Positions 52,124-55,530 of a DNA stretch of 64,000 nucleotides are shown in pieces. A program made the translations under genes and the position numbers. Position 1 is the stretch's first letter, and the number at the start of each line of letters is the position of its first letter. The DNA is from Vicinamibacteria bacterium (GTDB lineage: Bacteria; Acidobacteriota; Vicinamibacteria; Marinacidobacterales; Marinacidobacteraceae). The stretch covers positions 3,680,001 through 3,744,000 of the forward strand of contig CAXXLQ010000004.1 of NCBI GenBank assembly GCA_963668695.2, read 5' to 3'. A model generated the notes under the pieces. That model was given only the letters and a program-made list of their open reading frames with translations. It was not told where the DNA came from and searched no databases.

Positions 52124-52498
52124 ATGACCCGAAGGAGCAGAGTGTCTCTAGATTTCTATGATCGGTCTGGCGCGGCAGTGGCCTATACGAATGATGGAGA
52201 GAACATCTACCTGTATTCAGGTGAACCCGTCGCCTATCTCTCGGATGGTTCCGTCTATTCCTTCGCGGGCCAACATCTCGGATGGTTTGAGGGCGGCTGG
52301 CTAAGGGATGCGGCTGGACACTGCGTTCTCTTCACAGCGGACGCTCGCGGTGGCCCTCTGAAACCCCTCCGTCAGTTGCGTCCACTAAAGGGATTGAGAC
52401 AACTCCGACCCACGAAGGGCGTACGGCAGATTAAACCTCTCAAGCCTTTGAAATCCCTGTCCTGGTCAGACTTGTCGGCTGAGGAGTTCTTTCGGTGA
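52124..52498 (+). CDS. 4-fold beta-flower-like small protein with basic Pro-rich tail (lower GC)
   Basis: Repeats FYDRSGAAVAY / IYLYSGEPVAY / VYSFAGQHLGW and tail PLKPLRQLRPLKGLRQLRP. Confidence 0.7.
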   Translation: MTRRSRVSLDFYDRSGAAVAYTNDGENIYLYSGEPVAYLSDGSVYSFAGQHLGWFEGGWLRDAAGHCVLFTADARGGPLKPLRQLRPLKGLRQLRPTKGVRQIKPLKPLKSLSWSDLSAEEFFR

Positions 52499-52510
52499 CG
52501 GCCGGTTGAC

Positions 52511-53200
52511 TTGGACTTGATTCCGCTCGCTCGGGTCCGCTTCGCGATTCTCGACGTCCTAGTCGAAACTGGCGTCGCCCCCTCTCCTAGCGAGGTGGCC
52601 GAAAGACTGGGGACCGCATTGGAGACGGTTCACGACGCGTGGAGCCAGTTGCGGGAGTCGCGGGCGATCGTCACCGGTGAGGACGGGGTCTCCATCCTGA
52701 TGGCAAACCCGTTCTCGGGGATTCCCACGGAGCACACCTTCGAAGCGGCGGGAATCCGCTACTACGCGAACTGCGCCTGGGACGCCCTCGGGATCCCCGC
52801 CGCGCTCGGGCGAGGCGGGACCGTCCGGTCGCGCTGTGCGAACTCCGGGGAACCCCTGCGGCTCGAACTCACCGGCGCCGGGCCGGAACCCTGCGACTGG
52901 CTCTTCCATTCGCTGGTGCCGGCGGCCCGCTGGTGGGACGACATCGTCTTCACCTGAGCGAACATGCTGTTCTTCCGGTCGGAAGACGACCTTCGCGCCT
53001 GGTGCGGCGAGCGCGGGCGCGAACCGGGGCCCGCGGTTCCGGTGTCCCGGCTCTGGAACCTCTCACGGATCTGGTACGGAAGCCGGCTTGATCCGAACGC
53101 CCCCCGGCCCACGCCCGAGGAGGCTCGCGCTATCTTCGCCCGAGTAGGCCTGACCGACCCTTTCTGGGATCCGGTTCCGCGCGAGGAGCAGACGCCATGA
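52511..53200 (+). CDS. MerB-like organometallic lyase with in-frame TGA (probable selenocysteine) at 52955-52957
   Basis: N-terminal HTH, ANCAWDALG, SRC, then FT-TGA-ANMLFFRSE in the same frame; 229 aa with read-through. Confidence 0.85.
52968..52988 (+). promoter_or_regulatory. Bacterial SECIS-like hairpin
   Basis: TCTTCC-GGTC-GGAAGA stem-loop. The loop starts 19 nt after TGA and begins with G; a U bulge lies at 52970. Confidence 0.7.
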
Positions 53201-54585
53201 TTGACGAGAAGTCCGATAGACAAAGCCAGGATTCACCCTCCGCACCCAAGATGCGCTTCGGACTGACCCGCCGACAGTTGCTGGCCGCCGGGGCCGGAGC
53301 GGCTGTCGTTCCGGCACTCGTCGCCGCCCAGGCCGCACCGGCCTCCCTGCTGGCGGCTCCCAAGATCCCGAACGTCCGTATCGGGTTCGTGGGAGTGGGC
53401 GGGATGGGAACCGTGCACGTCCAGAATCTGCTCGCGGTGGGCAAGGCGTCACCCGGAGTGGAGATCCGGGCGATCTGCGACATCCGTGCGGAACACGCCG
53501 AGCGGGCGCGCGACTTCATCCGCGAGGCGGGAGGGCCGGAACCCACTCTCTACACCCGGGGGGAACGGGACTTCGAACGGATGTGCGCCGAAGAGGACCT
53601 CGACCTCGTCTTCACCGCGACGCCCTGGCGCTTCCACGTCCCGGTGTGCCTCGCCGCCATGGAGAACGGCAAGCACGCCGCCACCGAGGTGCCGGCCGCG
53701 ACCACCATCGAGGAGTGCTGGGCGCTCGTTGAGGCCGCGGAACGCACCGGCCGGCACTGCGTGATGATGGAGAACTGCAACTACGGCCGCTGGGAAATGA
53801 TGGTCTTCCACATGGTCCGACTGGGGATCTTGGGCGAGATCCTCCATGCCGAAGGCGGCTACCTCCACGACCTCCGCGAGGTGAAGTTCGCGGACCGGGG
53901 GGAGGGGCTGTGGCGGCGCGCCCATTCGAGCACCCGGGACGCGAACCTCTACCCGACCCACGGCCTGGGTCCGGTGGCGAACTGCCTGGACATCGGCCGC
54001 GGCGACCGCTTCGACTACCTGGTCTCGATGAGCGGGCCGTCGCGGGGACTTCAGGACTACGCGCGGGAGCACTTCCCCGAGGGGGCGCCGCCGCGGGCGG
54101 AAGAGTTCGTGCTCGGGGACGTGAATCTGAGCCTGATCAAGACCGCCCGCGGCCGCACCATCACCGTGGTCCACGACACGAACCTGCCGCGCCCGTACAG
54201 CCGGATCAACCTGGTCCAGGGCACCCGGGGCATCTTCGCGGGCTACCCGAACCGGGTCTACGTCGAGGGAAGGAGCGAGTCGCACCGCTGGGACGACGCC
54301 GAGAAATGGCGCGAGGAGTACGAGCATCCGCTCTGGCGGAACGTCGCGGGCCCCGGTGAGGAGCTGGGGCACGGCCAGATGGACTACCTTGAGGACTACC
54401 GCCTCGTGCGATGCCTGCAGGAAGGGTTGCCGACCGAAATGAACGTCTACGACGCCGCCGCGCTCTCCGCCGTCATAGACCTCAGCGAACGCTCGGTGGC
54501 CGACCGCAGCCGGCCGATGGACTTCCCGGACTTCACACGGGGCGGCTGGAAAACGTTCCCGAAGCTGCCGGTCGTCACCGACTGA
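53197..54585 (+). CDS. Tat-exported Gfo/Idh/MocA oxidoreductase, GH109 (alpha-N-acetylgalactosaminidase)-like
   Basis: TRRQLL, GVGGMG, MMENCNY, YPTHGLGP, PRPYSR and GHGQMD. Confidence 0.88.
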   Translation: MIDEKSDRQSQDSPSAPKMRFGLTRRQLLAAGAGAAVVPALVAAQAAPASLLAAPKIPNVRIGFVGVGGMGTVHVQNLLAVGKASPGVEIRAICDIRAEHAERARDFIREAGGPEPTLYTRGERDFERMCAEEDLDLVFTATPWRFHVPVCLAAMENGKHAATEVPAATTIEECWALVEAAERTGRHCVMMENCNYGRWEMMVFHMVRLGILGEILHAEGGYLHDLREVKFADRGEGLWRRAHSSTRDANLYPTHGLGPVANCLDIGRGDRFDYLVSMSGPSRGLQDYAREHFPEGAPPRAEEFVLGDVNLSLIKTARGRTITVVHDTNLPRPYSRINLVQGTRGIFAGYPNRVYVEGRSESHRWDDAEKWREEYEHPLWRNVAGPGEELGHGQMDYLEDYRLVRCLQEGLPTEMNVYDAAALSAVIDLSERSVADRSRPMDFPDFTRGGWKTFPKLPVVTD

Positions 54586-54722
54586 AGCCGCTCGTCGCCG
54601 CGATTCGGCCCCCTCGGGCGCGCCAGCCAAATCCCCATCGGCCCGGTCATTCAATGCCGGGAAGCAAACCAAACGCAGTTTCCACAATCACCGGCCTACA
54701 CACGGAATTTCTGACAGTCCTG

Positions 54723-55530
54723 CAGATCCCGGAATTGACGCATGCCCGGCTCGGCAGACCCCGGAATTGACCCATGCTCAGCCCGGCAGATCCCGGAATT
54801 GACGCATGCCCGGCCCGGCAGATCCCGGAATTGACGCATGCCCGGCTCGGCAGATCCCGGAATTGACCCATGCTCGGCTCGGCAGATCCCGGAATTGACC
54901 CATGCCCAGCTCGGCAAATCCCGGAATTGACGCATGCTCGGCCCGGCAGACCCCGGAATTGACCCATGCTCGGCCCGGCAGACCCCGGAATTGACGCATG
55001 CTCGGCTCGGCAGACCCCGGATTTGACGCATGCCCGGCTCGGCAGACCCCGGAATTGACGCATGCCCGGCCCGGCAAATCCCGGAATTGACGCATGCCCG
55101 GCCCGGCACACCCCGGAATTGACGCATGCCCGGCCCGGCACACCCCGGAATTGACCCATGCCCGGCCCGGCACACCCCGGAATTGACCCATGCTTGGCCC
55201 GGCAGACCCCGGAATTGACCCATGCTCGGCCCGGCACACCCCGGAATTGACCCATGCTCCGGCCAGCCGGCCCCGGAATTGACCCATGCTCGGCCCGGCA
55301 GACCCCGGAATTGACCCATGCTCGGCCCGGCACACCCCGGAATTGACCCATGCTCGGCCCGGCAGACCCCGGAATTGACGCATGCCCGGCCCGGCACACC
55401 CCGGAATTGACGCATGCCCGGCTCGCAGATCCCGGAATTGACGCATGCCCAGCTCGACAAATCCCGGAATTGACGCATGCCCGGCCCGGCAGACCCCGGA
55501 ATTGACGCATGCTCCGGCCAGCCGGCCCCG
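54723..55530. repeat. Tandem array of 25 x 32-bp units
   Basis: Consensus CCCGGAATTGAC(G/C)CATGC(C/T)CGGC(C/T)CGGCA(G/C/A)A(C/T). GGAATTGAC (once GGATTTGAC) recurs every 32 bp from 54731 to 55498, with one 31-bp unit. Confidence 0.97.

Follow-up and report, generated by a model that had tools for sequence, protein, structure and literature searches.

A very probable selenoprotein of the MerB superfamily with a conserved in-frame UGA and a covarying hairpin in a Vicinamibacteria genome

We analysed a stretch of 64,000 nucleotides (nt) of DNA from a Vicinamibacteria bacterium (GenBank assembly GCA_963668695.2, contig CAXXLQ010000004.1, positions 3,680,001 to 3,744,000 of the forward strand; hereafter, the window, to which all coordinates refer) and found that a gene on its forward strand, at 52511–53200, very probably encodes a selenoprotein, judging from its sequence and those of its homologues. 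We establish here that the gene is a single reading frame with an internal UGA, that its product belongs to the MerB family and has the MerB fold, that a Cys, an Asp and the position of the presumed selenocysteine (Sec) correspond to the catalytic residues of MerB, that UGA and Cys are paired at a conserved column among homologues, that a hairpin downstream of the UGA covaries, and that the host genome carries the machinery for Sec. The best explanation of these findings as a whole, and one that we consider likely, is a MerB-superfamily selenoprotein in which UGA is recoded to Sec149 and which would perform lyase chemistry by analogy with MerB. A preliminary description of the locus, made from the nucleotide sequence and its open reading frames (ORFs), had proposed a gene of this kind.

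The gene consists of 229 codons and a TGA stop, with an in-frame TGA at 52955–52957. The layout is the one claimed in the preliminary description, namely, two ORFs in the same frame, the first encoding 148 amino acids (aa) from a TTG start (52511–52957) and the second 78 aa (52964–53200), with nothing between them but TGA (52955–52957), GCG and AAC; the joined product has 229 residues. Standard gene calling yields exactly these 148-aa and 78-aa ORFs, so that the expected splitting of the gene in two by routine annotation does occur. The TTG start at 52511 agrees with the N-termini of the homologues (MDFDT...). The terminal TGA (53198–53200) overlaps the ATG (53197–53199) of the downstream GH109-like gene in an ATGA, as had also been described, and the product of that gene indeed contains GH109 C-terminal and GFO_IDH_MocA domains. 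TGA is an ordinary stop codon in the host genome, including for the selenoprotein gene itself and its neighbours. Two metatranscriptome runs provided short contigs over 52200–52787 only, at a depth of about 3, with the TGA region and the sequence beyond it uncovered; DNA carry-over is possible, and such contigs cannot show absence.

The read-through protein matches the Pfam MerB profile (PF03243) with 97.4 bits over profile positions 1–126 of 126, compared to the cut-off of 27, and the profile runs unbroken across the TGA; taken separately, the two halves score 55.8 and 21.8 bits, the second being under the cut-off. The MerB domain spans residues 68–190 and is preceded by a winged-helix-like N-terminal part (approximately, residues 1–60). 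An AlphaFold2 model of the read-through protein, built from an alignment of 26 sequences (A1), has a predicted local distance difference test score (pLDDT) of 94.7 and a predicted template modelling score (pTM) of 0.91, and in a Foldseek search with this model, each of the 11 best PDB matches is a MerB or MerB2 structure (E-values from 1.4e-10 to 1.9e-7, template modelling (TM) scores 0.49–0.67). Crystallised MerB aligns over 191–196 columns of the model, the N-terminal part included. In the residue alignment with crystallised MerB, C88 corresponds to Cys96, D91 to Asp99 and U149 to Cys159, and the spacing of U149-ANML-FF is equal to that of C159-CHVH-FF in MerB; the codons for C88-A-W-D91 (residues 88–91) lie at 52772–52783, with the equivalence of the Cys and the Asp drawn from the alignment to the 3f2g and 3fn8 chains. 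Thus, the description of a MerB-like protein with a CAWD motif and a UGA in the column of Cys159, five residues before FF, is confirmed by alignment to the MerB PDB chains. Both C88 and U149 are invariant in alignment A1. Four relatives with Cys in place of Sec (P0147, P0201, P0221 and P0261, about 311–326 aa) have a C-terminal extension after the MerB-like domain, which we take, by recognition from the alignment, to be a LuxR/GerE-like helix-turn-helix (HTH).

The residue at the column of U149 was traced through several collections of genomes and metagenomes, which overlap in part, so that the counts are not additive. In a sample of 61 related genomes, a match was found in 30, including 14 of the 15 further genomes that belong to the window's genus, and TGA is present in the same F-T-U or D-F-U column in 30 of the 30 translated loci, down to about 25% identity and with other families of the order included. 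An even sample of the phylum (301 genomes) gave a match in 26, with TGA at the column in 22 genes of 21 other genomes and TGC in two (L083 and L086). Two of these 22 genes (L067 in G209 and L075 in G083), which also account for two of the 50 sequences in the RNA alignment and for two rows of the tree described below, come from genomes flagged as unpublished, and no conclusion rests on them. Among the loci from named public genomes, the best 80 all have TGA at the column; they are labelled as Acidobacteriota, Chloroflexota, Verrucomicrobiota, Gemmatimonadota, Planctomycetota, Eisenbacteria, Calditrichota, Ignavibacteria, Alphaproteobacteria and Actinomycetota. Separately, one match in the genome of G062 (L087/L091; G062:C1:1249106-1249822) is split into two pieces, covering residues 8–118 and 121–220, possibly as a result of a frameshift or an insertion.

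At the protein level, 119 of the 120 closest database entries are truncations of 138–160 aa, the exception being P0052, with Trp at the column, and hundreds of database entries consist of 146-aa fragments under the names "hypothetical protein" or "alkylmercury lyase". The best 150 representatives at 50% identity include 68 that span the column, 75 that end exactly there and 7 other fragments. Cys occupies the column of U149 in 56 of the 68 full-length representatives, and that of C88 in 75 of the 75 truncated ones. The preliminary description had turned on whether homologues show TGA or Cys at this column, as opposed to Trp, Arg or a true stop, and the outcome is a conserved TGA or Cys, with Trp in only 2 of the 68 full-length representatives and in P0052; the 80 metagenome loci closest to P0052 have TGA in 80 of 80 cases and TGG in none. 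The codon that matches the ATG following the TGA in the window is ATC (Ile) in many homologues, so in those the second half is not a separately initiated ORF.

The putative selenocysteine insertion sequence (SECIS) takes the form of an upper stem-loop at 52969–52987, inside the codons for L-F-F-R-S-E-D. The stem UCUUCC (52971–52976)/GGAAGA (52981–52986) carries a GGUC loop (52977–52980), and G52969–C52987 closes over a bulged U52970; the hairpin begins 11–13 nt after the TGA, within the coding sequence, and agrees with the TCTTCC-GGTC-GGAAGA element with a bulged U that had been described. Its folding energy is ordinary, so the case for this structure must be comparative. In an alignment of 50 distinct stretches, each consisting of the TGA and the following 48 nt, the GGUC loop and the core stem are nearly invariant and lie at a fixed distance from the TGA. 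Paired bases fill 91.1% of the stem cells, compared to 53–65% when the 3′ partner is slid by 1–3 columns; two-sided changes occur in 4 of the 7 stem pairs (17 cells), and the covariation score was reached by none of 500 shuffles. The loop-closing C-G pair becomes U-A in three sequences, where the codons for Arg-Ser, CGG-UCG, turn into those for Trp-Ser, UGG-UCA, and A-U in others, among them L110; a change of the third pair from C-G to G-C replaces Glu with Gln. These compensatory changes alter the encoded residues and thus preserve RNA pairing at a cost to the peptide. Over the larger sets, 79 of the 80 named loci and 79 of the 80 metagenome loci share an unchanged GGUC loop. The hairpin is absent in both of the TGC forms seen as DNA, and as a protein-level proxy, the encoded R-S-E is near-universal in the TGA forms and variable in the listed Cys forms. 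The hairpin is thus kept and covaries in the relatives with TGA, as the proposal of a SECIS implied, and is missing from the two TGC forms seen. An Rfam scan of 52850–53100 with E-values up to 10 returned three chance-level small RNA matches and no bacterial SECIS family.

The Sec machinery, the presence of which had been left as a check on the proposal, is complete in the host genome: there is a tRNA-Sec (69.7 bits; called by ARAGORN as tRNA-SeC with the anticodon tca), along with selA (499 bits), selB (306 bits) and selD (253 bits), all over the curated cut-offs. In the phylum sample, selA is present in all 21 other genomes with the TGA form. With selA scoring over the cut-off in 233 of the 301 sampled genomes, Sec use is very common in the phylum. 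A further observation concerns selD: its match (G000:C4:729848-731614, outside the window; L019, L064) lies inside an open frame of 1359 aa that also weakly matches the pyridine-nucleotide-disulfide-oxidoreductase portion of the MerA model, and may represent a fused SelD.

Taken together with the biochemistry of MerB, to our knowledge the only well-understood enzyme that cleaves Hg-C bonds, these features suggest how the protein could be made and could function. The UGA at codon 149 would be recoded when SelB, carrying Sec-tRNA(Sec), binds the GGUC-loop hairpin in the coding sequence and inserts selenocysteine. Sec149 would then occupy the place of MerB Cys159, beside Cys88 (Cys96 in MerB) and Asp91 (Asp99). 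By analogy with MerB, an organometal(loid) compound would be bound through its metal(loid) atom by the Cys88 thiolate and the Sec149 selenolate, and its carbon-metal bond would be cleaved as Asp91 protonates the leaving carbon. The substrate need not be mercury because the genome has neither a MerA over the cut-off nor a mer operon. The protein is probably a catalytic organometal(loid) lyase.

Several observations weigh against this interpretation. We infer both the insertion of Sec and the lyase activity. At the RNA level, the minimum free energy (MFE) fold of the 61 nt after the UGA picks other pairings, with a z-score of 0.18 compared to shuffles, and folding energy was accordingly rejected as evidence for the hairpin; the Cys-form control of the hairpin rests on two genes; the related genomes are not independent of one another; and selA is present in 236 of the 301 genomes of the phylum sample anyway, which makes its co-occurrence with the TGA form weak evidence. 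At the column of U149, the 12 full-length representatives without Cys have W (2), S (2), H, A, Y, P and R (one each) or gaps (3), and the relatives of P0052 recovered from metagenomes reach a best identity of 83%, with its own 938-base-pair contig not among the 80 loci, which leaves its Trp without a direct explanation. With regard to the chemistry, the LuxR-type HTH in some of the Cys-form relatives suggests that part of the family may be ligand-sensing regulators, and a Hg-Se bond might hinder product release. A mercury-specific role is further disfavoured by the scores of the protein against the MerB equivalogs (57.5 bits vs 193 for NF009710 and 52.7 bits vs 200 for NF033555), by the lack of mer genes within about 9 kb of the gene, and by the best MerA match in the genome, which scores 371.9 bits compared to the cut-off of 454.45. 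Apart from its bearing on mercury, this context supports the preliminary description in placing the gene outside any mer operon. It is the only PF03243 gene in the host genome.

The principal rival explanation, which we regard as improbable although it accounts for some of the same facts, accepts a genuine selenoprotein and denies the lyase: the Cys/Asp/Sec site would bind or sense a metal(loid) or an organometal(loid), and the protein would serve in scavenging, as a chaperone, or as a ligand-sensing regulator that binds DNA with its winged-helix-like N-terminal part. A regulator might explain why, next after MerB in the Foldseek search, the first approximately 60 residues weakly resemble winged-helix domains of the DtxR/IdeR type (probability 0.97–0.99 over about 60 columns), why the protein has weak Pfam matches to HTH_20 and HTH_Crp_2, and why four Cys-form relatives carry the LuxR/GerE-like extension; the lack of MerA or another product acceptor in the genome, and of an operon partner conserved across phyla, points in the same direction. 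However, given that crystallised MerB aligns over the N-terminal part too, the winged-helix-like region belongs to the family at large and does not point to a regulator. Moreover, the equivalent of the MerB catalytic triad is fully kept in the window protein. Asp occupies the D91 column in 73 of the 75 truncated representatives, whereas in the Cys-form relatives this column is often Cys (27 of the 68 full-length representatives), which indicates that Asp is specifically kept in the Sec clade.

A second alternative, which we hold to be very unlikely, is that the UGA is decoded without Sec, by near-cognate read-through as Trp or Cys or through a local change of the code, and that the hairpin is a stimulator of read-through or a by-product of the FFRSE motif. 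Trp is indeed found at the column in P0052, in P0197 and in 2 of the 68 full-length representatives, and the overlap of the hairpin with conserved codons implies that protein-level constraint explains part of its conservation. Yet TGA serves as an ordinary stop in this genome, and the relatives mostly have Cys, not Trp. As for P0052, its Trp is, we infer, most simply a gene call under translation table 4, because its 80 closest relatives carry TGA and none TGG. The compensatory stem changes that replace residues (R to W together with TCG to TCA, and E to Q) would not arise from a constraint on the peptide, and both the match of loop and spacing to the SECIS of Escherichia coli fdhF and the full set of Sec genes argue for Sec. 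That the TGA is a real stop, so that the locus is a pseudogene or two small genes of 148 and 78 aa, as standard gene calling, the hundreds of 146-aa entries and the ATG two codons after the TGA in the window would have it, is scarcely credible, considering that the TGA and the downstream frame are conserved, unlike in a pseudogene, across about ten phyla and a sequence divergence exceeding 60%, that the MerB profile is continuous over the TGA while the second half alone is below the Pfam cut-off, that the would-be start is ATC in many homologues, and that the read-through protein is modelled as one confidently folded domain.

The evolution of the presumed selenoprotein was examined in a quick maximum-likelihood tree of 107 rows, comprising 52 one-Sec, 6 two-Sec and 49 Cys forms, with branch support from the Shimodaira-Hasegawa-like approximate likelihood ratio test (SH-aLRT) only; 21 of the 80 named loci were taken, near-duplicates being left out. 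The window protein belongs to a clade of 28 rows, all of them Sec forms (support 99), in which at least nine phyla are intermingled; this mixture suggests horizontal spread of the clade. Outside this clade, Sec forms are interspersed with Cys forms, and the tree requires 10 changes between the two, of which well-supported branches force only one. The joining of two groups of two-Sec forms in the tree may be an artefact.

The genomic neighbourhood includes genes for a DUF547 protein, a GT2 glycosyltransferase, a flavin adenine dinucleotide (FAD) oxidoreductase, a 4-fold beta-flower protein, the GH109-like protein, an amidohydrolase, a phosphodiesterase and an isopropylmalate-type dehydrogenase. 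The GH109-like gene (53197–54585, forward strand) encodes an oxidoreductase of the Gfo-Idh-MocA type with a twin-arginine-like leader (PF21252, 202 bits; PF01408, 62.7 bits) and accompanies the selenoprotein gene only at loci from the window's genus or from the closest named relatives of that genus; loci of other clades lack it. Gene-neighbourhood clustering of 122 loci revealed no recurrent neighbour across phyla, the large clusters consisting of the gene itself and of alternative-frame ORFs over it; with the sole true recurrent neighbour confined to the window's genus, the context gives no clue to function. The beta-flower gene (52124–52498, forward strand; PF21784, 139 bits) ends 12 nt before the start of the selenoprotein gene in the window; at other loci of the genus, different ORFs lie upstream. 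At 54722–55519, between the GH109-like gene and the amidohydrolase gene, the window contains 24.9 head-to-tail copies of a 32-nt unit, which match at 90% and are free of indels and spacers; the repeat opens long frames in several phases of both strands. The period and the absent spacers do not fit clustered regularly interspaced short palindromic repeats (CRISPR).

MerB-like selenoproteins are known as a kind, as the preliminary description had noted in locating the possible novelty in the subfamily or the context. The known case is SaoL, "selenocysteine-assisted organometallic lyase", a MerB-like selenoprotein modelled as NCBIfam NF040728 (Haft & Gwadz, bioRxiv 10.1101/2022.07.06.499078). The gene in the window differs from SaoL, and what is new is the subfamily and its context. 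The table of a 2026 review (PMC13188914) has SaoL as its sole MerB-like entry, and a 2022 review (PMC9312934) has one entry given as "alkylmercury lyase MerB-like". Neither MerB nor alkylmercury is mentioned in the main texts of PMC2398784, PMC5029168, PMC12013277 and PMC13326102 (GOS 2008, Peng 2016, deep-Sep 2025 and BSepDB 2026, respectively), a full-text literature search found no paper on a Sec-containing MerB family other than SaoL, and the window protein passes no model of NCBIfam release 20.

Recognition of the Sec codon would repair hundreds of 146-aa fragment entries and the orphan ORFs of about 78 aa, and would add a large family to the prokaryotic selenoproteome. A selenolate at the metal site of MerB in organisms without MerA raises, as testable questions, the nature of the substrate, the release of the product and whether merB surveys miss a major group active on organometal(loid)s. 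On a more speculative note, and with considerable doubt, we suggest that the all-Sec clade, found in soil, sediment and marine bacteria of at least nine phyla, might act on organometal(loid)s as a lyase independent of mer, for example, as a demethylase of methylmercury or of other methyl-metal(loid)s, in which the selenolate would give high affinity at trace concentrations in the environment. If so, the family would constitute a widespread sink in metal(loid) cycling that has so far gone uncounted; surveys based on merB would miss it, since its sequences are truncated in every database.

Among the known systems, MerB and MerB2 (EC 4.99.1.2; PDB 3F0O, 3F0P, 3F2F, 3F2G, 3FN8, 1S6L and 5C17) share with the window protein the fold (Foldseek E-values of about 1e-10, TM scores 0.57–0.67), the matched positions of Cys96, Asp99 and Cys159, and the spacing to the FF motif. 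They differ in that the window protein has Sec in place of Cys159 and lacks an equivalent of Cys160, so that the sites are chemically analogous and not identical, and the sequence identity in the structural alignments is only 24–27%. The equivalog scores, the lack of a MerA over the cut-off and the lack of mer genes within about 9 kb rule out a bona fide mer-operon MerB.

SaoL, in turn, resembles the window protein in belonging to the MerB superfamily, in its length of about 210–230 residues, in the single Sec aligned to MerB Cys159 and in that its substrate is not assumed to be mercury, according to its description (10.1101/2022.07.06.499078). In contrast to the Cys-Sec (CU) pair of SaoL, however, the window protein has F-T-U-A, and Cys precedes U in no homologue examined; it scores 41 bits against the NF040728 cut-off of 140, matching over residues 8–120 only. 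SaoL is described as the marker of a nine-gene SAO locus of strict anaerobes (10.1101/2022.07.06.499078), whereas the hosts of the window family are Acidobacteriota, Verrucomicrobiota, Chloroflexota, Gemmatimonadota, Planctomycetota, Actinomycetota and others; no SAO-like locus is present among the neighbours of the window gene, no genome search aimed at the SAO family models having been made. Identity with SaoL is ruled out by the NF040728 score, the missing CU motif and the lack of an SAO-like locus.

The two-Sec MerB-like groups of the same order (L049–L052; L053, L056 and L057) likewise have a TGA at the Cys159 column followed by the same CUUC(C/U)-GGUC-(G/A)GAAG hairpin. Unlike the window gene, they have another TGA in the column of Cys96 (YGQ-U-GIE or YAA-U-AED), and this codon is followed by a separate hairpin of its own; these hairpins after the first TGA of the gene, GCUGGCC-GUGAG-CCAGC and CACCCUU-CGUGC-AAGGGUG, are conserved. 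The two-Sec proteins are about 25–30% identical to the window protein and form long separate branches in the tree.

The closest counterpart of the window hairpin itself is the SECIS of E. coli fdhF (formate dehydrogenase H, codon 140), which is also a hairpin directly 3′ of the UGA in the coding sequence, with an identical apical GGUC tetraloop and a bulged U in the 5′ strand of the upper stem. When positions are numbered from the U of UGA, the loop lies at 22–25 in fdhF (K-12 record) and at 23–26 in the window. The sequence of the stem is different in the window hairpin, for which SelB binding is predicted only, and the fdhF-like bulged U is present in the window's genus, whereas many other family members have a fully paired stem. 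A near-invariant GGUC hairpin of the fdhF type across about ten phyla amounts to a clean natural data set on recognition by SelB.

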